Positions 1,928 to 26,015 of a stretch of DNA of 32,000 nucleotides are shown one piece after another. The translations under genes and the position numbers were made by a program. This DNA comes from Lewinellaceae bacterium (GTDB lineage: Bacteria; Bacteroidota; Bacteroidia; Chitinophagales; Saprospiraceae): the NCBI GenBank assembly GCA_947476195.1, contig CANJPT010000010.1:17167-49166 (forward strand), read 5' to 3'. The notes under the pieces are model-generated. The model saw nothing but the letters and a program-made list of their open reading frames with translations, made no database searches and was not told the DNA's origin. The number at the start of each line of letters is the position of its first letter. Position 1 is the stretch's first letter.

Positions 1928-2245
1928 TTAACCTTCAAAATCCTGATGGTCTACTAAAATCAATCGCTTGTAAACGGCCTCCCAGCTCTCAAAAACAACC
2001 GTATAGGGCACTGTCGGAGTTTGTTCAGGCTTGATGCTCCAGGTCAGATGTACTGAAGCCCAGATCTCTTCATTCACTACTTTGACCAGTATCTCATCAC
2101 AATCATAGCGCCTTGCAATCAACTCTACCTGCTTTCCATACAAGGGATGTCCCTTTATTACTTCTTTGTATAGTTCTGAAACAAATCCTTCACCCCTCCT
2201 ATCCTCGGTTATAGCATGCCAAGGCTCTAATAGTTCATTTTCCAT
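1928..2245 (-). CDS. Hypothetical 105-aa protein inserted between murC and ftsQ
   Basis: ORF MENELLEPWHAITEDRRGEGFVSELYKEVIKGHPLYG...HLTWSIKPEQ... Its ATG (2245..2243) overlaps the murC stop (2235..2237) by 11 nt, which suggests translational coupling. It ends 10 nt before the ftsQ start. I recognise no family. Confidence 0.6.
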   Translation of the reverse strand: MENELLEPWHAITEDRRGEGFVSELYKEVIKGHPLYGKQVELIARRYDCDEILVKVVNEEIWASVHLTWSIKPEQTPTVPYTVVFESWEAVYKRLILVDHQDFEG

Positions 2246-3605
2246 GGCTCAACTGATGCTTTATCGGTTCAACAAATGTGTCGATATCCCCAGCGCCCAT
2301 GGTCAGCAAGATTTCTGGATGCCGGGTTTTTAGCTCGTTGAGCAGGTCTGTTTTCTGCAGCAAACTTTTATACTTCAAAGTCATTTTGTTCAGCAACATC
2401 TCAGAGGTCACTCCTGGCAAGGGCTGTTCACGAGCCGGGTAGATCGGCAATAAGATACACTCGTCCAGTTTGTCCAAAGCGGTTGCAAAAGCATCTGCAA
2501 AATCACGGGTACGGGTGAACAGGTGCGGCTGAAAAATACCCATGATTTTTTTGCCCGGGTACAACGAACGGGCAGCCTGAATAGTAGCTTCGAGTTCGGC
2601 CGGATGGTGCGCATAATCGTCCACATACACGGTTTCAGCGGTTTTAACGATGGTCTCGAATCGACGTTTCACCCCTTTAAATCCAGCCAAAGCAGCGCGC
2701 AATTCAGTGGAGAAACCACCTGCAGCGAGCGTTGCCGCTATAGCTGCTGTTGCATTCAGGATGTTGTGATTACCAGGATAATTTAATCGCAGATCATTCC
2801 AGTCGAAAATAGTAGATCGAAGTCCAAAGGCCGTTTGTCCGTCTACCACCCGCACATTATAGGCCTCATAATATCCTTCCTCAATCCCGAATGTAAACAC
2901 GAAACGGCCCGTAGCCAGCAGTTCTTCAGCCACATCTTCGAGTGGCAATCCGTATTTGTAAATTAGCTGGCCACCAGGTTTGATCTGGCGTGCAAACTGT
3001 TTGTAAGCTTCCACTACCGCTTGTGGCGTACCATATATGTCCAGGTGATCAGCATCAATCGAATTCAAGACTGCCACGTCGGGACTGAGATGAAGGAAGG
3101 AACGATCATATTCATCCGCTTCCACTACCACCCAATCACTTTTCCCTTCAACGAAATTGGAACCCAGGTTTCCAGAGATGCCACCCACAAAAGCCGTAGC
3201 ATCTACTCCTGAAGCCCGAAGCAAATGCGCGGTCATGGTTGAAGTAGTGGTTTTCCCGTGGGTACCTGCAATCGCCACACATTTTTTGGCCCGACTGATG
3301 ATGCCAAGTACTTCGGCACGTTTTTTAAGTGGAAAGCCACGTTCTATAAACCAGTTCATCTCGCTATGGTCTTTTGGCACTGCCGGAGTCCAAACAACCA
3401 GATCAATGCCTTCCGGGATCTGCTTCACATTGTCCTCATAGTGCACAAACATCCCCTCGGACACGAGTGTGCGCGTAAGCTCGGTTTCTGTGCGGTCATA
3501 GCCATATACCTCCGCACCATGCAGGCGAAAATAGCGGGCTAAGGCCGACATGCCGATGCCGCCGATGCCGATGAAGTAGATCTTTTTGATTGCGTTGAAT
3601 TCCAT
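2235..3605 (-). CDS. murC: UDP-N-acetylmuramate--L-alanine ligase MurC
   Basis: N-terminal MEFNAIKKIYFIGIGGIGMSALARYF (Rossmann-type GxGGxGMS) and the Mur ligase P-loop AIAGTHGKTTTS. I place the start at ATG 3605; the ORF track offers a start 12 codons further upstream at 3641. Confidence 0.93.
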   Translation of the reverse strand: MEFNAIKKIYFIGIGGIGMSALARYFRLHGAEVYGYDRTETELTRTLVSEGMFVHYEDNVKQIPEGIDLVVWTPAVPKDHSEMNWFIERGFPLKKRAEVLGIISRAKKCVAIAGTHGKTTTSTMTAHLLRASGVDATAFVGGISGNLGSNFVEGKSDWVVVEADEYDRSFLHLSPDVAVLNSIDADHLDIYGTPQAVVEAYKQFARQIKPGGQLIYKYGLPLEDVAEELLATGRFVFTFGIEEGYYEAYNVRVVDGQTAFGLRSTIFDWNDLRLNYPGNHNILNATAAIAATLAAGGFSTELRAALAGFKGVKRRFETIVKTAETVYVDDYAHHPAELEATIQAARSLYPGKKIMGIFQPHLFTRTRDFADAFATALDKLDECILLPIYPAREQPLPGVTSEMLLNKMTLKYKSLLQKTDLLNELKTRHPEILLTMGAGDIDTFVEPIKHQLSHGK

Positions 3606-5150: not shown

Positions 5151-5648
5151 TGCAACGCGAATTACGCGGATAGTGCGGATTTATGCAGATTAAATACTCA
5201 AGGTTATTTCGATGTTTGGTCTTTGTTTGCTTGAATTAGCATATCCCTTTCTTAAAAACTCGGGTTTTATTCCAAAATTTAAAACAAGACCAACCTCAAT
5301 TGGCATTGCTCGGAGATAATGAAGTAGCTGGGCTTCATGGGGATCTTCAATTGTTGCTTGCGCTTTCAATTCAAGAATAATCTTCCTTTCTACTACCACA
5401 TCTGCACGATATTTCCCCATCAGCATTCCTTTGTAATAACCCGACATTAGCTTTTCCTCTTCTATTCCCAGGCCCAATTGTCTTAACTCCTAAACTAAAG
5501 ACTTTGGGAAAATTTTTGCCCGAAAGCCGTAATGCAACTAGTTATAGACCTCAAAAAAGGCTTTCAAAATATTATCGGTCAATTCCTTGTGCAGTATTTC
5601 CATAGATTTGCTTTAAGTGTTAAAAAATCCGCGTAAAGCCGTGTTGCA
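5151..5648 (-). mobile_element. Decayed GxxExxY cassette bounded by an imperfect inverted repeat of about 21 nt
   Basis: The arms are 5151..5171 (tgcaacgcgaattacgcggat) and 5627..5648 (atccgcgtaaagccgtgttgca). The reverse complement of the right arm is tgcaacacggctttacgcggat, giving 18 matching positions with one 1-nt indel. The arms abut the murG start (5148) and the ftsW stop (5649), so the cassette fills the whole spacer. Confidence 0.5.
5190..5603 (-). pseudogene. GxxExxY-family (PD-(D/E)XK fold) gene disrupted by two in-frame TAG codons
   Basis: Hand translation from ATG 5603 gives MEILHKELTDNILKAFFEVYN*LHYGFRAKIFPKSLV*ELRQLGLGIEEEKLMSGYYKG...ADVVVERKIILELKA...EAQLLHYLRAMPIEVGLVLNFG. 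The stops are TAG at 5540..5538 and 5492..5490, in the same frame as the 95-aa ORF listed in the track. The signature motif has degraded to GFRAKIF. Confidence 0.8.
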
Positions 5649-6782
5649 CTATTCTAGTGATTCAATATACTTGGAAACACTTAAAATCATTCCCAGTGAG
5701 ATACACGTAAACAACACACTCGTTCCACCCATTGAAACAAGGGGCAAAGTCAATCCAGTGGCTGGCACCAGATTCAGATTTACCGCCATATTGGCAAGTG
5801 CCTGCACCGTCAGCATCAAACTGAGACCTATGGCTAAAAATGCTCCAAACGCCTTGGGACTTTGGGTAACGAGCCGCACATTTCGCAAAAACAGCAGCAC
5901 GTATAATGCTAACACGATCGTTCCACCCACTAATCCATATTCCTCACAGATAATCGCATAAATAAAGTCTGCACTACAATATGGCAGGTAATGTCGCATC
6001 ATAGAATTTCCAGGACCATTCCCAAAAATGCCACCTTTAGCAATGGCAATTTTAGCTTGTTGAACCTGATACCCGCCATCTTCATCATGGAGAAAGGTTT
6101 GAACGCGTTTTTCCCAGGTGTCTACCCTGACCAAATCAAGTTCCGGATAAACCTTACCAATACCAACCAGGATGACAAAAACCAACACCCCTAACATCAT
6201 CATCATGATGATGTATTGTGCACTTACCCGCCCCATGAACATTAATAATATACAGGTGGCGAACAAGATCATAGCCGTACTAAGATTGGAGGGTGCAATA
6301 AGTCCACAAACCAAAACTACCGGTATGATGATTGGAAAAAATGCCTGTCTGAGACTAGTGATATACTCTTGCTTCAATGTCAGAGCCCTTGCCACATAGA
6401 TAATAAGGGCAATTTTTGCCATTTCCGAAGGCTGAAAACTGAAGCCTCCAAAACTTATCCAACGATTTGCATCATTGATATTCGTACCAAAAAAAAGCGT
6501 AAAAATCAATAAAGGGATCGTCAACAATAGAAGTGGACGCGCCAATTGCTGGTATCGCCGATAATGTATCAGGTGACCCAGATAAATAAGAAATAAGCCG
6601 AAGGCCAGTTTTACAATATGCCCCATGATCATACCAGTCGTATTACCCCCATGGGTACGCCAGGCCTCCCAGCCAGAGGAGGAGAACACGGCCAGAATGC
6701 TGAATAAGCTCAGCACGGCCACGATCATCCAGATGGTACGATCGCCCCTAAGTTCTGCTGCTATGCGGTTGCCGAGTGACAT
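5649..6782 (-). CDS. ftsW: Peptidoglycan glycosyltransferase / lipid II flippase-family protein FtsW (SEDS family)
   Basis: 377-aa polytopic membrane protein with FtsW/RodA/SpoVE-like sequence (...LPYCSADFIYAIICEEYGLVGG...TGLTLPLVSMGGTS), located in the dcw cluster. Confidence 0.9.
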   Translation of the reverse strand: MSLGNRIAAELRGDRTIWMIVAVLSLFSILAVFSSSGWEAWRTHGGNTTGMIMGHIVKLAFGLFLIYLGHLIHYRRYQQLARPLLLLTIPLLIFTLFFGTNINDANRWISFGGFSFQPSEMAKIALIIYVARALTLKQEYITSLRQAFFPIIIPVVLVCGLIAPSNLSTAMILFATCILLMFMGRVSAQYIIMMMMLGVLVFVILVGIGKVYPELDLVRVDTWEKRVQTFLHDEDGGYQVQQAKIAIAKGGIFGNGPGNSMMRHYLPYCSADFIYAIICEEYGLVGGTIVLALYVLLFLRNVRLVTQSPKAFGAFLAIGLSLMLTVQALANMAVNLNLVPATGLTLPLVSMGGTSVLFTCISLGMILSVSKYIESLE

Positions 6783-6806: not shown

Positions 6807-7877
6807 TTATTTTTGAGATGCCAGTACTTTTTGATAAAACTCAATGTATTGTTCGGCTGATTTTTCCCAGGTAAACCGGGCTGCCCAAGACTCTATTTTT
6901 TTCCCTTTGCCGGGGTTATTTTCAAACTGTTTCATACCGTTGGCAAAAGCCTCAACTAAAGTGTTTGGTTCAAAATCATTGAAATAATATGCTTCTACGC
7001 CTCCGATCTCCGGAAGGCTAGTTAGCTTTGAAAGAAAAACCGGTTTCCCAAATGACATGGCTTCTATTACCGGCAATCCAAATCCTTCAGAAAGAGAAGG
7101 GAAAAGTAGCGCTGTACAATTCTGGTAGAATTCCATTTTTGCTTCCTCTCCAACCGGACCACAGAATTCGATTCGATCTGCCACGCCAAATCGTGCTGCC
7201 TCTTGTTCAATTTTTGCCTGATATCCGCGACTGTCTGGCCCGGCAATGATCCATTTATAAGCCTTAAATTCAGCCAAAAGCGGCATCAACACGTGATAGT
7301 TCTTCTTCGGATGAATGCCAATTGAAAATAGGAATGGACCTTGGTCCTTAGAGCCCTGAAACTTGCCACCTGGTCCTTGATACTTAAAACTTCCACCATT
7401 ATAGATCACTTGTTCTACTTTTCCCTTTGGGACCTTCAAAAGCTGGTGAACCAAATTCCGCACATATTCAGAGATATACACCAGGCCATTTGCCCGCTTG
7501 ATCTTTTGCTGCATTGCCACCATCCTGTGGCTTTTTTTCGCTTCTGAATAATCCGGGCGTTCCAGAAAATTCAAGTCGTGAATCGTAATCACCAGTGGCG
7601 TTTTACGGCTGCGTGGCATGTATGCTGAATCTTGATGCATACAATGCCAGAGTGACTCGCCAAAATCTGGACCGATGATTTTATGCCAGGGTTTTACCGC
7701 TTTATATTCCATTCCGTTGCCAAACTCCCCCTTGCACGCTGCTGGAACCAGGCAAGCAAAACCCAGGCCTGCATCCGATCCCTCGACTGCAAATGCACGA
7801 CCCAGCTGTAGGCAGTATTGCCCCAGACCGGAGTACGGGTTTCTTAAGCGTTCCATTTCCAGTGCGATGGTTGGCAT
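6807..7877 (-). CDS. Glycosyltransferase, GT4 / Glycos_transf_1 type
   Basis: 356 aa with the C-terminal signature PSLSEGFGLPVIEAMSFGKPVF (EX7E-type motif of retaining GT-B enzymes). It sits between murD and ftsW, where canonical dcw clusters have no gene. Confidence 0.85.
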   Translation of the reverse strand: MPTIALEMERLRNPYSGLGQYCLQLGRAFAVEGSDAGLGFACLVPAACKGEFGNGMEYKAVKPWHKIIGPDFGESLWHCMHQDSAYMPRSRKTPLVITIHDLNFLERPDYSEAKKSHRMVAMQQKIKRANGLVYISEYVRNLVHQLLKVPKGKVEQVIYNGGSFKYQGPGGKFQGSKDQGPFLFSIGIHPKKNYHVLMPLLAEFKAYKWIIAGPDSRGYQAKIEQEAARFGVADRIEFCGPVGEEAKMEFYQNCTALLFPSLSEGFGLPVIEAMSFGKPVFLSKLTSLPEIGGVEAYYFNDFEPNTLVEAFANGMKQFENNPGKGKKIESWAARFTWEKSAEQYIEFYQKVLASQK

Positions 7878-7901
7878 TTTTATAAATTAAGCGGTTTTTT
7901 C

Positions 7902-8487
7902 TTTTAAAACACTAAGAGACTAAGGGACACTAAGGTTAAGTGGGGTATGAGAGGGGTTTTAGTCCCCATCGGGTAAAACTGAAAAGTATTCATTGACATA
8001 TGGAGTAGTACTTTTTGTGATTTTGTCGGTAAAAAAATTGATCATCAATCCTTTTGGCTTTTTGAGCAACTTCATATAGGACAAGAGTTTGGCAACTTCA
8101 ATTGGGTTGATTTCCTGAACAGCTTTCAATTCTACCACAACACAGTCATCAACCAGTAAATCAAATCTTAATTCTGTTTCCAACTTAATTTCCTTGTACA
8201 ACACGAATACTTTTTGCTGACGCTGCACATCAAATCCTCGCAACTTCAATTCGTATTCCATGCAAGCCTCATAAACCGATTCCAACAAGCCCGGGCCAAA
8301 GGTTTTGTGTACCTCAATTGCACTGGAAATCACATCGAATGCTACCTGATTGACTTCTTTTTTGGTCATGGAATTGAGAATTAGGTTATAGATCTCTTAT
8401 GGTCCAAATCTCTAACCACCTTAAACTGTATCCACCTCTAATACCCCTCTTAACCTTAGTGCCCCTTAGTCTCTTTGTGTTTTAAAA
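7902..8487 (-). mobile_element. GxxExxY cassette bracketed by a 53-nt inverted repeat
   Basis: The left arm is 7902..7954 (ttttaaaacactaagagactaagggacactaaggttaagtggggtatgagagg). The right arm is 8435..8487, whose reverse complement is ttttaaaacacaaagagactaaggggcactaaggttaagaggggtattagagg. Hand alignment gives 49/53 identical positions. A further 10-nt complementary pair lies just outside, at 7889..7898 and 8499..8508. The enclosed ORF runs in the same direction as the operon and looks more AT-rich than its neighbours by eye. Confidence 0.7.
7959..8369 (-). CDS. GxxExxY protein (PD-(D/E)XK nuclease-fold family)
   Basis: 136 aa with GPGLLESVYEACMEYEL (the GxxExxY motif) and DLLVDDCVVVELKA (D...ExK nuclease-fold motif). 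Confidence 0.85.
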   Translation of the reverse strand: MTKKEVNQVAFDVISSAIEVHKTFGPGLLESVYEACMEYELKLRGFDVQRQQKVFVLYKEIKLETELRFDLLVDDCVVVELKAVQEINPIEVAKLLSYMKLLKKPKGLMINFFTDKITKSTTPYVNEYFSVLPDGD

Positions 8488-9829
8488 TGCTTAGCTGTAA
8501 AACCGCTTCCCGAAACTGCTCTCCCCTATCTTCATAATTTTTAAACAAATCAAAACTCGCACAAGCAGGGCTCAACAAAACCATATCTCCCTTTTTCGCA
8601 AAACCAGCAGCCATTTTAACGGCCTCCTGAGCGCTCCCTGTTTCCACGAGTGGCTTCTTCATTCCCCCAAACACACTGATTATCTTTGAATTATCCACAC
8701 CCATGCAAACGATGGCCTTCACCTTGTTCTTTACCAATTTTAAAAGTGGCGTATAATCGTTCCCCTTGTCCTGGCCGCCAACGATCCACACCGTCGGCGT
8801 ATCCATCGCCTGCAAAGCATAGAACACAGAATCCACATTGGTTGCTTTCGAATCGTTGATCCAAATTACACCATTGGTTTCAGCTACTTTTTCCAAGCGG
8901 TGTGGCGGCGGTATAAATGTGTTCAATCCTTCCTGGATCTTATCCGGTTTAGCGCCCAGCAACAGAGATACCCGAATGGCACATACAGCATTAAACATGT
9001 TGTGCGGTCCACGAAGGGCACTTTTTGACATCCCGAAGACCTCTTTTCCAACCTTAATCAGACCGTTTTTGTAGAAGCCTTTTCTGATCGCGATTTGTTT
9101 GGGTTTACTCACCGGGTGACTTGAAGTCACCCGGTGAGTCGCCAGAATCGGATCAAACCCATTGTAAATGAACTTGTCGCCGCGCCCCTGATTCATGGTC
9201 ACCCGAAACTTCGACGCTGCGTAATTTTCCAGTTTGTAATCATAGCGATCCAAATGATCCGGTGTGATGTTCAGCAGCAATGCTATTTTAGGTCGGAACT
9301 GCTGAATATCATCGAGTTGAAAACTTGAAACCTCCAACACGAAAATCCTTTGGTCCGCTTTTGTGCTACCTGTTTTCAGATCTTCCAGTGCCATGCGGGC
9401 AAATGAATTTCCAACATTTCCGCCTTTTCGCACATCCAAACCGGCGGTATTCAAAAGGTGATAGGTCAATTCTGTCGTAGTCGTTTTACCATTTGAACCT
9501 GTAATCGCTACGATCTGACATTTTCCAGCATGCCGATACCCAAATTCAATTTCACCGATCACGTTGATACCTTTTTCACGCACAGCTTTCATCACTTCAC
9601 TTTTTTCCGGAATACCAGGACTTTTAATGATCTCATTGGCATTCAATACCTTATCCAGACAGTGCTGGTTTTCTTCCCATGGAATACCAACTTCATTCAA
9701 TTCTGTTTGAAATGAAGCCTTTATCGCTCCTTTATCAGATACGAATACGTCATAGCCAAGGTATTGGGCCAAAAGGGCCGCACCTGTGCCGGATTCCCCG
9801 GAGCCTAATATGACTATTCTTTTTTTCAT
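8456..9829 (-). CDS. murD: UDP-N-acetylmuramoylalanine--D-glutamate ligase MurD
   Basis: 457 aa with N-terminal IVILGSGESGTGAALLA and the Mur ligase P-loop ITGSNGKTTTTE, in the dcw position after mraY. The last 10 or so codons (8459..8487) lie inside the right arm of the inverted repeat. Confidence 0.92.
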   Translation of the reverse strand: MKKRIVILGSGESGTGAALLAQYLGYDVFVSDKGAIKASFQTELNEVGIPWEENQHCLDKVLNANEIIKSPGIPEKSEVMKAVREKGINVIGEIEFGYRHAGKCQIVAITGSNGKTTTTELTYHLLNTAGLDVRKGGNVGNSFARMALEDLKTGSTKADQRIFVLEVSSFQLDDIQQFRPKIALLLNITPDHLDRYDYKLENYAASKFRVTMNQGRGDKFIYNGFDPILATHRVTSSHPVSKPKQIAIRKGFYKNGLIKVGKEVFGMSKSALRGPHNMFNAVCAIRVSLLLGAKPDKIQEGLNTFIPPPHRLEKVAETNGVIWINDSKATNVDSVFYALQAMDTPTVWIVGGQDKGNDYTPLLKLVKNKVKAIVCMGVDNSKIISVFGGMKKPLVETGSAQEAVKMAAGFAKKGDMVLLSPACASFDLFKNYEDRGEQFREAVLQLSILKHKETKGH

Positions 9830-11246: not shown

Positions 11247-11279
11247 GGTTTTGGGGCGATATTCCATCGCCCCAAAACC
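11247..11279 (-). terminator. Perfect 14-bp stem-loop in the murE-mraY spacer (possible attenuator or partial intrinsic terminator)
   Basis: ggttttggggcgat (11247..11260), loop attcc, atcgccccaaaacc (11266..11279). On the transcribed minus strand the stem is followed by ACATTTTTAAACG. The T-tract is short and offset by 3 nt, so terminator strength is uncertain. Confidence 0.4.
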
Positions 11280-15151: not shown

Positions 15152-15245
15152 CCATAATACTGGACATTTTTGTTTTGCCCACAGACCTATAAGGTTTCCA
15201 AAAACCTTACAGGTCTCGATTTTAGAAAATGTCCAGTAGTGTGGT
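15152..15245. mobile_element. MITE-like nested inverted-repeat element between ftsL and ftsI
   Basis: The outer stem is a perfect 13-bp pair: tactggacatttt (15158..15170) with aaaatgtccagta (15227..15239). It extends to 19 nt with 2 mismatches (15152..15170 with 15227..15245). The inner stem is 15 bp with 1 mismatch: agacctataaggttt (15183..15197) with aaaccttacaggtct (15202..15216). The 8-bp direct repeat tgtgcatc flanks the element at 15145..15152 and 15245..15252, exactly 100 bp apart. Confidence 0.5.
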
Positions 15246-23420: not shown

Positions 23421-24710
23421 ATGTATCCATCACTTCTAAGAAAGGAAAAAACGCTTGCCGTAATAGGCCTTGGATACGTCGGGTTGCCGATCGCCCTTGA
23501 GTTTGCGCGTGATTTTCGGGTGATTGGGTACGATATTGATGCTGTGCGTATTGCTATGATGCAGCGAGGAGAAGACCCCAGTCGGGAACTCGGCCCGGAA
23601 GAATTTACAGGTCGTGACATTCATTTTTCCTCTCAATTAGAGGACCTGGCCCAAGCCCATTTTTTTATAGTCGCCGTCCCGACCGATATAGATGAGCATA
23701 AGGTTCCCAACCTGAACCCACTGAAAAAAGCGTCCACAGATATTGGCAGCGTCCTAAAAAAAGGCGATTACGTAGTATACGAATCTACTGTATATCCAGG
23801 CTGCACTGAAGAAGATTGCCTCCCCATTCTGGAAAAATTATCCGGGCTGAAAATGGGGCCTGATTTCAAACTCGGCTACTCCCCCGAACGCATCAACCCG
23901 GGAGACAAAACAAAACCACTCACACAAATATTAAAGATTGTAAGTGGCTCAGATGCAGAAGCCCTGGAGGAAATTGCTAAAATCTACAGGCATATAATTG
24001 AAGCTGGAATTTACTGCGCCAGCACCATAAAAGTAGCTGAGGCCGCCAAAGTTATTGAGAATACCCAGCGCGATTTGAATATTTCGCTGATGAATGAACT
24101 CGCTATGATCTTTGACCTTATGGGCATTGATACACAGGAAGTGATCAAAGCCGCCGGAACCAAGTGGAACTTCCTGAAGTTTTACCCTGGACTTGTGGGC
24201 GGACACTGCATCGGGGTAGACCCTTACTACTTATTGCATAAATCCGTCGAACTGGGTTACGAACCACAAGTCATTCTCAGCGGCCGAAGGGTCAATGATG
24301 GTATGCCAGCATGGGTAGCTAAAAAAGCAGTGCAACTCCTGCTCAAAAAAGGCAAAAGTCCGCACCTGGCCAAAGTGCTCATTCTCGGAATCACATTCAA
24401 AGAAAACGTATCTGATATTCGAAACTCCAAAGTTGCCGCCATGGTCAACGAACTTCAGGACTTTTCAATCAATGTCCAGATCGCAGACTGCCATGCAAAC
24501 CCCAACGAGGTAGCCAAAGAATATAACCTGAGACTCAGCGACAACATTTCAACAGGATATGATGCCGTAGTAGTCGCCATAGGACACGATGAATACCGAA
24601 AGTATGATAGTGCATTTTTTAAATCAATCATGGGTGAAAACCCTATTTTGATGGATTTAAAAGCACTTTATGAAGATGTTGAGGAAGGAATCGAATATTG
24701 GAGACTATAA
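23421..24710 (+). CDS. wbpA: UDP-N-acetyl-D-glucosamine 6-dehydrogenase-type nucleotide-sugar dehydrogenase (WbpA/TviB/WbpO family)
   Basis: 429 aa with the N-terminal NAD fold LAVIGLGYVGLPIAL and the catalytic Cys context GLVGGHCIGVDPYY. The specific assignment is inferred from the adjacent WbpE/WbpB/WbpD-like genes. Confidence 0.75.
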   Translation: MYPSLLRKEKTLAVIGLGYVGLPIALEFARDFRVIGYDIDAVRIAMMQRGEDPSRELGPEEFTGRDIHFSSQLEDLAQAHFFIVAVPTDIDEHKVPNLNPLKKASTDIGSVLKKGDYVVYESTVYPGCTEEDCLPILEKLSGLKMGPDFKLGYSPERINPGDKTKPLTQILKIVSGSDAEALEEIAKIYRHIIEAGIYCASTIKVAEAAKVIENTQRDLNISLMNELAMIFDLMGIDTQEVIKAAGTKWNFLKFYPGLVGGHCIGVDPYYLLHKSVELGYEPQVILSGRRVNDGMPAWVAKKAVQLLLKKGKSPHLAKVLILGITFKENVSDIRNSKVAAMVNELQDFSINVQIADCHANPNEVAKEYNLRLSDNISTGYDAVVVAIGHDEYRKYDSAFFKSIMGENPILMDLKALYEDVEEGIEYWRL

Positions 24711-24712
24711 TG

Positions 24713-24857
24713 AATGTGGTCAATGAGTAAAATGTGGTCAATGTGATTTGGGCTCGACCAGGCCACATTAAGCACATTGGCCACATTCTTCTAATTGACT
24801 ACATTAATCATATTGAACACATTGTCCACATTAATCTAATTGACCACATTTTACATT
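24713..24857. repeat. 9-bp-periodic two-orientation array of the motif ATTGNNCACATT, filling the whole intergenic region
   Basis: There are four reverse-orientation 9-mers at 24713..24748: aatgtggtc, aatgagtaa, aatgtggtc, aatgtgatt. A 12-nt spacer (tgggctcgacca) follows. Then come ten in-phase forward 9-mers at 24761..24850: ggccacatt, aagcacatt, ggccacatt, cttctaatt, gactacatt, aatcatatt, gaacacatt, gtccacatt, aatctaatt, gaccacatt. A partial unit follows. aatgtggtcaat (24713 and 24731) is the exact reverse complement of attgaccacatt (24839). Confidence 0.85.
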
Positions 24858-26015
24858 ATGATACAAATGGTTGACCTCAAAACCCAATACACCCGCATCA
24901 AGAGCGAGATAGACCGCGAGATGCAGGAAGTATTTGATTCTTGTATTTTCATCGGCGGACCTAAAGTGAATGCTTTTCGGGAAAGCCTGGAGCAATACCT
25001 CGGCGTAAAACACGTCATTCCATGCGCCAATGGTACCGATGCCCTCCAAATTACCATGATGGCTCTTGGCCTAAAACCGGGCGATGAAGTGATCGTCCCG
25101 GCTTTTACCTATGTGGCGACTGCAGAAGTGATCGGATTGCTTGGGCTCACGCCTGTCATGACGGACGTAGACCCTGGCACGATGAATATTACGGCAGCGA
25201 ACATTGAAGCCGCAATCACACCACGTACCAAAGCCATTGTACCGGTCCATTTGTTCGGACAATCAGCCGACATGGCCTCCATCATGGCGCTGGCTAAAAA
25301 GCACAATTTATTTGTAATCGAGGACAATGCGCAGGCGATTGGGGCGGATTATACCTTTCCTGCCGCTGGCACAACGTCCGGTGACGGAGAAACAAAGAAG
25401 ACTGGCACCATCGGTCACTTTGGCTGCACCTCCTTTTTCCCTTCCAAAAACCTCGGCTGCTATGGAGATGGAGGCGCCATGATGACCAACGATGATGCCC
25501 TTGCCGCAAAGGCCCGGATGATTGCCAACCACGGGCAGTCTAAGATGTACTACCATGATGAGATTGGAGTAAACTCCCGGCTGGATGCCATGCAAGCCGT
25601 AATCCTGAATGCAAAACTAAAACACCTCGACGAGTATAATGCCGCCCGAAACCGTGCTGCAGACTACTACGACCGATTTTTCGGGCAAATTCCACAGTTA
25701 CAGATTCCTGCACGCGAAACAAATTCAACACACGTTTTCCACCAGTATACCCTCCAGATCAATACGCCAGATTCGGTGAAAACCCGGGATGAATTGAAAG
25801 CCTTTTTGCTGGAAAAAAGCATCCCATGCATGATCTATTATCCTGTTCCATTGTATGATCAACCCGCATTTGCACCTTTCTGGAAAGACGGAAAATTGCC
25901 TGTAACAGAAGCACTTTGCGCATCGGTGTTTTCGCTACCCATGCACTCGGAAATGACAGAAAGTGTTTTAGCTGAGATCACTGGAGCGGTGAAGGCATTT
26001 TTTGAGACCCGGTAA
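24858..26015 (+). CDS. wbpE: DegT/DnrJ/EryC1/StrS-family PLP aminotransferase (WbpE-like UDP-3-keto-GlcNAcA aminotransferase)
   Basis: It carries MIQMVDLKTQYTRIKSEID..., DALQI, and the PLP-lysine context TSFFPSKNLGCYGDGG. Function is inferred from the family and the neighbouring genes. An alternative start exists at 24867. Confidence 0.8.
   Translation: MIQMVDLKTQYTRIKSEIDREMQEVFDSCIFIGGPKVNAFRESLEQYLGVKHVIPCANGTDALQITMMALGLKPGDEVIVPAFTYVATAEVIGLLGLTPVMTDVDPGTMNITAANIEAAITPRTKAIVPVHLFGQSADMASIMALAKKHNLFVIEDNAQAIGADYTFPAAGTTSGDGETKKTGTIGHFGCTSFFPSKNLGCYGDGGAMMTNDDALAAKARMIANHGQSKMYYHDEIGVNSRLDAMQAVILNAKLKHLDEYNAARNRAADYYDRFFGQIPQLQIPARETNSTHVFHQYTLQINTPDSVKTRDELKAFLLEKSIPCMIYYPVPLYDQPAFAPFWKDGKLPVTEALCASVFSLPMHSEMTESVLAEITGAVKAFFETR

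Follow-up and report, generated by a model that had tools for sequence, protein, structure and literature searches.

A small gene of the GxxExxY family stands between murD and a glycosyltransferase (GT) gene in the dcw operon of a Lewinellaceae bacterium, and it is enclosed by a long inverted repeat. We refer to the whole analysed stretch of DNA, 32,000 nt of contig CANJPT010000010.1 (assembly GCA_947476195.1, positions 17,167 to 49,166), as the window, and to the repeat together with its gene as the murD-GT cassette. The locus raises the question of what such a bracket does within an essential operon, and of whether it is peculiar to this site. The second part has a plain answer, as bracketing by inverted repeats is a general property of GxxExxY genes. 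For the first part, the reading that we prefer, to which we give a probability of about 0.4, is that the cassette folds within the dcw transcript and is probably cut there by RNase III.

The inverted repeat between murD and the glycosyltransferase gene

The features of the cassette and of its two host genes are listed here in the direction of transcription, with the coordinates of the window.

8456..9829 (-), murD, the upstream host gene, whose C-terminal tail ...SILKHKETKGH* is encoded by the arm
8499..8508 (-), outer 10-nt stem extension, 5' side, within the murD coding sequence (codons E-A-V-L)
8435..8487 (-), 5' arm of the inverted repeat, the upstream arm by transcription direction, with the tandem units CAC(A/T)AAG, GACTAAGG and CACTAAGG
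8370..8434 (-), inner 65-nt spacer from the 5' arm to the start codon of the open reading frame (ORF), little conserved in orthologues and without a promoter-like match
7959..8369 (-), GxxExxY gene, 136 aa, the only sizeable ORF between the arms
7902..7954 (-), 3' arm of the inverted repeat, with its inner end 4 nt past the ORF stop and its outer end 24 nt before the glycosyltransferase start
7889..7898 (-), outer 10-nt stem extension, 3' side, in the spacer right before the glycosyltransferase start codon
6807..7877 (-), GT4 glycosyltransferase gene, the downstream host gene

The two 53-nt arms are complementary at 49 of 53 positions (92%) with 480 nt between them, and the outer pair (7889-7898 / 8499-8508) is 100% complementary. 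The chance level was estimated by shuffling the 250-nt flanks 2000 times and taking the best local-alignment score each time; the actual arms scored 43, against a mean of 8.2 for the shuffles (standard deviation 1.1, maximum 14), which corresponds to a z value of about 33. In the 32-kb window just one further inverted-repeat region (24713-24854) has arms of at least 22 nt within 1.5 kb. When the minus-strand RNA of 7870-8520 was folded, the arms and the outer pair closed the whole ORF, with a minimum free energy of -200 kcal/mol and z = -9.35. The G+C fraction is 0.36-0.41 over 7900-8500 and 0.42-0.49 in the neighbours, and murG lies on the minus strand, as do murD, the GT4 glycosyltransferase gene and ftsW. 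The anatomy proposed by the sequence-only reading was thus correct in its arm coordinates and complementarity count, in the outer pair, in the GxxExxY ORF as the only one enclosed (it matches the TIGR04256 and PF13366 profiles), in the common direction of this ORF with murD, the glycosyltransferase gene and ftsW, in its higher A+T content and in the ability of the arms to form a duplex of more than 50 bp around it. An Rfam scan of the window returned no known RNA family and no rRNA.

The repeat also reaches into the upstream gene. The murD frame enters the 5' arm and ends at the TAA codon 8456-8458 inside it, its last 11 codons (SILKHKETKGH) being arm-encoded. In the relative L002 the MurD stop codon precedes the arms. 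As in the window, the left arm at many other loci contains the stop codon of the upstream gene or has it at its border. The outer 10-nt pairing is confined to the window and L001, and L002 has GCGGTATTG at that place, without a complementary partner downstream.

Generality of the bracket

A census with one genome per species yielded 80 further GxxExxY loci, mostly from Bacteroidota and otherwise from Ignavibacteria, Planctomycetota and Acidobacteriota; it is biased to the subfamily matched by two peptide patterns, and its ORF starts and neighbouring genes were called mechanically. For the 77 loci with full flanks, a bracket score was obtained by aligning the 250 nt upstream of the ORF to the reverse complement of the 250 nt downstream. 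This score was at least 14 in 58 of the 77 loci (75%) and at least 20 in 44%. Among re-paired (permuted) flanks 7% reached 14 and 1% reached 20, while among displaced controls of the same geometry, taken 1.5-2.2 kb away, a single one of 261 (0.4%) reached 14 and none exceeded it. The question put by the sequence-only reading, whether other GxxExxY copies are bracketed as well, is therefore answered in the affirmative. Further bracketed loci were found by other routes (L100, L110, L093 and L121, the last one from the RefSeq-annotated Bacteroides finegoldii). In L121 the arms are separated by 2 nt from the radA stop codon and by 6 nt from the start codon that follows them, and the RefSeq annotation of this locus contains the GxxExxY gene and leaves the arms without any feature.

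The bracketed genes follow the orientation of their surroundings. Both neighbours are on the ORF strand in 54 of 73 loci, both are opposite in 7 and they are mixed in 12, in agreement with the earlier suggestion that these cassettes lie co-directionally in operon spacers. In most co-directional loci the outer end of the left arm is found at about -14 to +10 nt from the upstream stop codon; the distance from the right arm to the next start codon is known precisely for the window (24 nt) and L121 (6 nt). At many loci the ORF fits closely between the arms, with 0-12 nt from the left arm to its start codon and 0-20 nt from its stop codon to the right arm. Within each 6-kb locus, arms were found only beside the gene. 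The murD-GT cassette is thus one of a large unannotated class, defined by a single small ORF, a long inverted repeat and a co-directional position at a cistron boundary.

Arms as arrays of tandem units

The arms of different loci are unlike in sequence but share a common build, consisting of an A/T-rich outer end, then ..(C)CAC/T and then three to four tandem units, with a period of 8, 9 or 10 nt (114, 74 and 64 instances, respectively). The units observed include CACTAAG, CATTAAG, CACATAG, CATATAAG, CACAGAG and CGCAAAG, and whole arms are often tandemly duplicated on one side. A locus shares its unit type with its nearest protein neighbour in 50 of 58 cases, against 13 expected (permutation p < 0.0005), a comparison that is confounded by host phylogeny. 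Unit type also differs by ORF family within one genome, with CACTAAG units around subfamily A and GCGGAT/ACCGAT units around subfamily B.

Two explanations for the units were considered and discarded. Stop codons in all three frames might account for the 8- and 10-nt periods, and this fits units with TAA or TAG but not the CACAGAG or GCAAAG variants. A Shine-Dalgarno or promoter reading of the units gave no consistent match by eye.

The GxxExxY protein

The ORF matched TIGR04256 with an E-value of 7.6e-38 (129.5 bits, cutoff 35) and PF13366 PDDEXK_3 with an E-value of 2.6e-35 (121.8 bits, cutoff 22). Residues G27-x-x-E30-x-x-Y33, D70 and E80-x-K82 are invariant in alignments of 18 and 23 homologues. 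The AlphaFold model (predicted local distance difference test score, pLDDT, 87) has an alpha-beta nuclease core, and Cas4 SSO0001 was the sole PDB fold match with E < 0.001; tRNA-splicing endonucleases and archaeal Holliday-junction resolvases matched far more weakly. The fold is thus closest to a nuclease core of the Cas4/RecB type. A PDB sequence search returned no solved relative. From the profiles and the model, the protein is a GxxExxY family member with a minimal PD-(D/E)XK fold and a predicted Cas4-like nuclease. Because the ratio of nonsynonymous to synonymous substitution rates (dN/dS) is 0.05-0.13 among five orthologous murD-GT loci, it is functional and under strong purifying selection.

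The family comprises 13,756 representatives at 50% identity clustering (E <= 0.001). It is near-absent from phages and plasmids, with 1 weak match in 2.9 million viral contigs and 5 in 72,556 plasmids; the protein had no match in PHROGs, and PADLOC models gave a marginal Cas4 similarity alone (E 0.005), which is not convincing as a defence system. Phage or plasmid cargo was rejected on these grounds. Some relatives (e.g. P0241, P0243 and P0247) are about 260-310 aa long with two matched stretches, which suggests tandem double GxxExxY domains.

A survey of PD-(D/E)XK nucleases lists the function of the GxxExxY family as "Unknown" and contains no mention of an inverted-repeat bracket, unit arrays or an operon-spacer habit (PMC3424549). 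Elsewhere in the open-access literature the name occurs as a passing mention of a domain beside a reverse transcriptase, and the open-access literature on GxxExxY, PDDEXK_3 or PF13366 does not describe the bracket.

Orthologous loci and conservation of the arms

Orthologues at the same junction were found on Saprospiraceae contigs in L001 (essentially the same organism), L002, L003, L004, L007 and L091, and L089 shows only the right arms and downstream genes of the murD-GT locus, at a contig end. Arms of one and the same sequence family surround the gene in L001-L004 and L091, often with extra tandem arm copies on one side. The L007 contig includes 140 nt ahead of the ORF and breaks off where the left arm is expected, so that the upstream arm is out of view; downstream of its GxxExxY gene one left-type arm is followed by four right-type arms, with a spacing of 58 nt (552-841). 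The orientation of the GxxExxY gene is identical in all orthologous dcw loci.

Among these orthologues the arms are 79-97% identical, and the 3' arm is 83-94% identical where full-length arms are compared, or 88-97% over the 31-34 nt comparable in L007. The inner spacer is 65-73% identical and synonymous differences in ftsW amount to 48-81%, which is close to saturation. Since arm identity is this high while synonymous differences in ftsW reach such values, the arms themselves are kept by purifying selection. The cassette, judged from the same comparisons, is old at this site and vertically inherited in a Saprospiraceae clade. Covariation among the orthologous arms was limited to 8 columns, several of them trivial since the arm sequence is conserved, and cannot separate structure from sequence constraint. 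Population polymorphism was similarly sparse: set A had 0 variable columns inside the arms, and set B had 2 substitutions and 1 single-base insertion at the outer edge of the left arm, too few in either set for significance.

The junction was also inspected in relatives without the cassette. L096, whose glycosyltransferase is 70% identical, has a 77-nt murD-glycosyltransferase spacer without the ORF and without CACTAAG arms, and L095 carries an unrelated 251-aa ORF at this junction; the junction is therefore variable among relatives. Had the arms been a host structure kept without the ORF, they would be expected in L096, and their absence from it does not bear out the concern that they might be one. 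The empty site sought by the sequence-only reading was found in so far as L096 lacks the cassette, but its spacer is unalignable with the flanks in the window, so that no clean insertion junction or target duplication can be defined. No direct repeat was seen outside the murD-GT arms.

Some further observations concern the downstream genes. The GT4 glycosyltransferase gene between murD and ftsW is kept in this Saprospiraceae clade, and in more distant relatives (L098/L099, 4001-5029) a homologous GT4 gene follows murG, so its position in the cluster has shifted. In L004 an inverted repeat of GTCAACA-type units (2014-2049 / 2547-2582) lies inside the glycosyltransferase coding region; the protein has 391 aa vs 356 aa in the window, and the in-frame units appear in it as inserted residues (..GGQQSTVNGQKF..), showing that unit arrays can end up within coding sequence. 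L007 carries an extra DUF1016/YhcG-type gene (1961-3079, Pfam precomputed matches) between the glycosyltransferase gene and ftsW.

Mobility

The arm pattern of the window was matched only 7 times in a metagenome collection; two of these matches come from the same dcw locus and one from another GxxExxY gene. Two proteins that occur on 21-22 contigs each always have the same neighbours in the same orientation, and no identical protein was found in two contexts. The earlier proposal of a mobile or once-mobile cassette consequently stands over evolutionary time only, as there are no dispersed arm copies and identical proteins keep to one context.

Three known classes were rejected for the element. 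A dispersed repeat, that is, a repetitive extragenic palindrome (REP), a bacterial interspersed mosaic element (BIME) or a miniature inverted-repeat transposable element (MITE), does not agree with arms that lie only beside their own gene within the 6-kb loci and with the 7 metagenome matches. An active transposon or insertion sequence was dismissed on account of the lack of a transposase and of near-identical dispersed copies, and of the single context per protein. In an integron gene cassette a single downstream attC palindrome would be expected and not arms that pair across the ORF; moreover, the outer ends of the murD-GT arms read ..CCAC/GTGG.., which are not attC cores (RYYYAAC/GTTRRRY), and there is neither an integrase nor a cassette array.

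A second cassette and other repeats

The window holds a second, degenerate cassette between ftsW and murG and an ORF-less repeat of the same style.

5649..6782 (-), ftsW
5604..5648 (-), degenerate 5' arm of the second cassette, with GCGGAT-type units; 5627-5636 pairs perfectly with 5162-5171
5190..5603 (-), second cassette, a GxxExxY pseudogene of a different subfamily between ftsW and murG, with two in-frame stop codons
5149..5189 (-), degenerate 3' arm of the second cassette, with ATCCGC units, ending at the murG start codon
24713..24854 (+), ORF-less inverted repeat of the same style, with 33-nt arms of AATGTGGTCAATG / CACATT units and a 72-nt loop

The C-terminal 95-aa piece of the pseudogene scores 3.3e-19 against TIGR04256. 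At the same ftsW-murG site the cassette is intact in L004, where an 88-nt inverted repeat of ACCGAT-type units surrounds it, and in L096, with GCGGAT-type units; it is internally deleted in L002 and truncated in L095, and short arm-like relics are present in L003 and L007. Full GCGGAT-type arms are seen in L002 and L096. This range of states indicates that cassettes can be lost through decay.

The ORF-less repeat fills the spacer that separates the gene of a UDP-sugar dehydrogenase (23421..24710) from that of a DegT aminotransferase (24840..26015), and its RNA fold gave -51 kcal/mol with z -5.5. It may represent the remains of a cassette, or else the same kind of element without an ORF. Further ORF-less tandem-unit inverted repeats are located at L098 1397-1669 (at the murD 3' end and in the murD-ftsW spacer), L073 1166-1399 and L053 538-735, with the units GATGAG, GAACGAT and GAGTTTT; each of these repeats, including that of the window, carries its own unit sequence.

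An inverted repeat in L026 (309-345 / 1477-1513) surrounds a GDP-mannose 4,6-dehydratase gene. It may consist of a right arm from a cassette further upstream that pairs with the left arm of the downstream GxxExxY cassette, in which case neighbouring cassettes of one genome would share arms. In L063, L078 and L071 the two flanks of the GxxExxY gene have long direct repeats in common (alignment scores 90-112), which may be whole hairpin units or a duplicated spacer on either side. Two other hairpins lie in dcw spacers of the window: nested hairpins at 15152-15244, with 19-nt arms around a hairpin with 15-nt arms, in the 213-nt ftsL-ftsI spacer, and a perfect 14-bp hairpin with a 5-nt loop at 11247-11279 (GGTTTTGGGGCGAT / ATCGCCCCAAAACC) in the 216-nt mraY-murE spacer.

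Four-helix-bundle genes and rRNA intervening sequences

When all loci were scanned for inverted repeats without bias, other bracketed small ORFs appeared, two of which encode TIGR02436 four-helix-bundle proteins. A profile built from these proteins detected four four-helix-bundle genes in the loci, and all four are bracketed by unit-array inverted repeats (scores 29.5, 30.5, 24.5 and 15.5; n = 4), the units in the arms of four-helix-bundle genes being GATG-like or TAAGTG-like. The close relative L091 has a bracketed four-helix-bundle gene (7366..7767) just upstream of ftsI.

This family (PF05635, 23S_rRNA_IVP) is the ORF of the intervening sequence (IVS) of 23S rRNA, an element of about 0.4 kb with terminal inverted repeats and a sense ORF that is excised by RNase III; ORF-bearing IVSs are known in Leptospira, Coxiella, Xanthomonas and Brucella (PMC4990558). 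A 2013 survey reported four-helix-bundle genes wedged between cmr genes, and its passages on these cmr-located genes do not mention repeats (PMC3936711).

The association between IVSs and small ORFs to which the sequence-only reading pointed therefore holds for the four-helix-bundle family, bracketed alike in 4/4 cases, but GxxExxY genes were not in rRNA in any of the 88 sequences. Its comparison of the geometry with that of rRNA IVSs was right about the terminal inverted repeats and the long stem, and did not extend to the location or to the ORF family. A true rRNA IVS was rejected for the murD-GT element, as it lies between murD and the glycosyltransferase gene and its ORF does not belong to the four-helix-bundle/23S_rRNA_IVP family.

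Possible mechanisms

In the reading that we prefer, the cassette is part of the dcw transcript. This is probable because no promoter of its own was detected, no promoter-like or terminator-like site having been matched on the sense strand of the cassette with the sigma-70 consensus, which fits Bacteroidota poorly. Once the 3' arm had been transcribed, the arms would zip into a duplex of 53 bp plus the 10-bp outer extension, which would close the 480-nt ORF region into a hairpin and bring the murD stop codon beside the glycosyltransferase start codon. RNase III cleaves long duplexes with little sequence requirement. Its cut in this duplex would remove the cassette RNA or insulate it from the host message, as in an rRNA IVS, and the bracket would thereby make an insertion in an essential operon tolerable. 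A role at the RNA level is favoured by the co-orientation with operons and by the position of the left arm at the upstream stop codon in most loci, with the right arm ending shortly ahead of the next start codon in the window and L121. The rRNA IVS provides a precedent, and the selection on the arms and the bracket shared with the IVS ORF family count in favour of the reading too. It is also favoured by the stem that runs 10 nt into the murD coding sequence (in the window and L001 only), an extension that pairing would explain and two independent binding sites would not.

Several points weigh against folding and cleavage of the transcript. Transcription through the arms, formation of the stem and its cleavage are all steps that we infer, and the poor fit of the sigma-70 consensus leaves room for an internal promoter. 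Stems selected at the RNA level usually tolerate G:U pairs preferentially. The arm mismatches on the mRNA strand of 46 cassettes comprise 48 G:U, 60 A:C and 137 others, with no wobble bias, and in the lack of a G:U excess there is therefore no positive support for selection at the RNA level. A simple double-stranded RNA model does not require arms made of tandem units, and these units, together with the unit type that tracks the protein lineage, suggest sequence-specific recognition. Finally, no rRNA motifs were found in the 88 sequences (the window and 87 loci).

A somewhat less probable explanation, which we nonetheless regard as a serious competitor, places the recognition on DNA. The arms would be arrays of binding sites for the cassette's own protein, similar to iterons or to transposon subterminal repeats, and the inverted arrays would act as operators or label both ends of the element so that it can be integrated, excised or recombined, with RNA pairing as a by-product. 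It would account for the three to four units per arm, repeated every 8-10 nt in inverted orientation on both sides, for the different unit types of ORF families within one genome, where two cassettes have different units, and for the agreement between unit type and protein similarity in 50 of 58 nearest neighbours, although this last relation is confounded by host phylogeny. The strand-symmetric arm mismatches, the conserved arm sequence with whole arms often tandemly duplicated on one side, and the occurrence of the family at many sites in several phyla, with cassettes present or absent among relatives, point in the same direction. On the other hand there is no sign of current mobility, the arms staying within their own locus, and neither a target-site duplication nor a clean empty site is definable. 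A recognised transposase is lacking, and four-helix-bundle proteins are not nucleases. The co-orientation with operons and the pairing that extends into murD are moreover left unexplained.

Arm pairing might instead sequester the initiation region of a potentially toxic nuclease, in the style of the hok mRNA fold-back, so that despite strong operon transcription only a brief burst of translation would occur on the nascent transcript. The short distances at many loci between the left arm and the start codon (0-12 nt) and between the stop codon and the right arm (0-20 nt) agree with such a lock, as do the strong constraint on the catalytic residues and the dependence of the cassette on host transcription, judged by its co-orientation. 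We nevertheless hold it to be improbable: in the window the start codon is 65 nt inside the arm and not obviously sequestered, the same bracket surrounds non-enzymatic four-helix-bundle genes, pseudogenes and ORF-less relics, and the toxicity of the GxxExxY protein is an assumption. An inverton-type switch, in which recombination between the arms flips the ORF on or off, has suitable geometry (30-88-nt arms flanking about 400-500 nt), and the ORF is antisense to both neighbours in 7 of 73 loci; this is very unlikely, however, as twenty independent contigs from two loci are all in one orientation, the orthologous dcw loci are so too and no invertase gene is nearby. A chance match or a generic genome-wide intergenic repeat of the REP or MITE kind could be invoked from the ORF-less inverted repeats of similar style in other spacers (24713-24854, L098, L073 and L053). 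Its probability is close to nil given the z value of about 33 for the repeat in the window, the specific association with GxxExxY genes, where displaced controls never exceeded 14, the lack of recurrence of the arms elsewhere in the 6-kb loci or in metagenomes, and the separate unit of each ORF-less repeat.

Folding and probable cleavage within the dcw transcript is the most likely working model for the murD-GT cassette, whose anatomy, conservation and generality are established. More speculatively, GxxExxY and four-helix-bundle genes with unit-array arms might together form an unrecognised class of minimal elements, whose own units are recognised lineage by lineage on DNA or RNA, and which colonise cistron boundaries and become harmless to the host by folding or cutting themselves out of the transcript. 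The ORF-bearing rRNA IVS would then be a special case of this class that resides in rRNA.

Significance

Members of this family are annotated only as "GxxExxY protein", despite the 13,756 representatives at 50% identity, and their cassettes occur inside essential or highly expressed operons (dcw, radA, maltodextrin and sugar-nucleotide operons). If the transcript is folded and cut, the cassettes would be built-in processing sites that could alter stoichiometry within host operons. The bracket shared by GxxExxY and four-helix-bundle genes offers a testable route to the nature and origin of the rRNA IVS, a question open since the 1990s, and the lineage-specific unit arrays provide a ready hypothesis for the activity of both protein families. 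The arms also supply altered C-termini to host proteins, an example being the 11-codon tail of MurD. They may conceivably contribute to assembly breaks, such as the contig start of L007, and could mimic CRISPR-like repeats.

Comparison with known systems

The cassette resembles small DNA transposons and MITEs in its inverted termini with short direct repeats, its single nuclease-fold gene and its patchy presence among relatives. Unlike these elements, it has no DDE, HUH, serine or tyrosine transposase, no target-site duplication was found for it, and it occupies a fixed single locus, with an orientation biased to host transcription and without a multi-copy near-identical family. REP-associated tyrosine transposases (RAYTs) are likewise single-copy genes flanked by inverted repeats that they are thought to recognise; however, RAYTs are HUH proteins (IS200/IS605-like) and REPs are present in hundreds of dispersed copies, whereas the cassette arms are found only beside their gene. 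With hok/sok the cassette shares a long-range pairing of 5' and 3' ends that encloses a small, potentially harmful ORF. It differs in that no antisense RNA gene is evident, in the ORF, which encodes a nuclease-fold protein of about 135 aa and not a membrane peptide, and in the arms, which are far longer and in the window lie outside the initiation region.

The rRNA IVS is similar in more respects. Both are units of about 0.4-0.75 kb with one small sense-oriented ORF, their terminal repeats form a long stem (28 bp in Coxiella, 53+10 bp in the murD-GT cassette), and they are embedded in a highly transcribed host unit and more AT-rich than their surroundings. Both are kept vertically after acquisition, and ORF-less versions exist. 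The host of the murD-GT cassette is, in contrast, the protein-coding dcw operon and not rRNA, and its ORF has a PD-(D/E)XK fold and not a four-helix bundle; its arms, perhaps unlike those of the IVS, are arrays of tandem 8-10-nt units. The GxxExxY protein is clearly under purifying selection, whereas the Coxiella IVS ORF is apparently not expressed. Excision by RNase III has been demonstrated for the IVS, and for the murD-GT cassette we infer it by analogy. The resemblance is architectural, by way of the sister four-helix-bundle family, and is not membership. Because neither the rRNA location nor the IVS ORF family applies, we file the element as an IVS-like, inverted-repeat-bracketed operon-spacer cassette rather than as an IVS.

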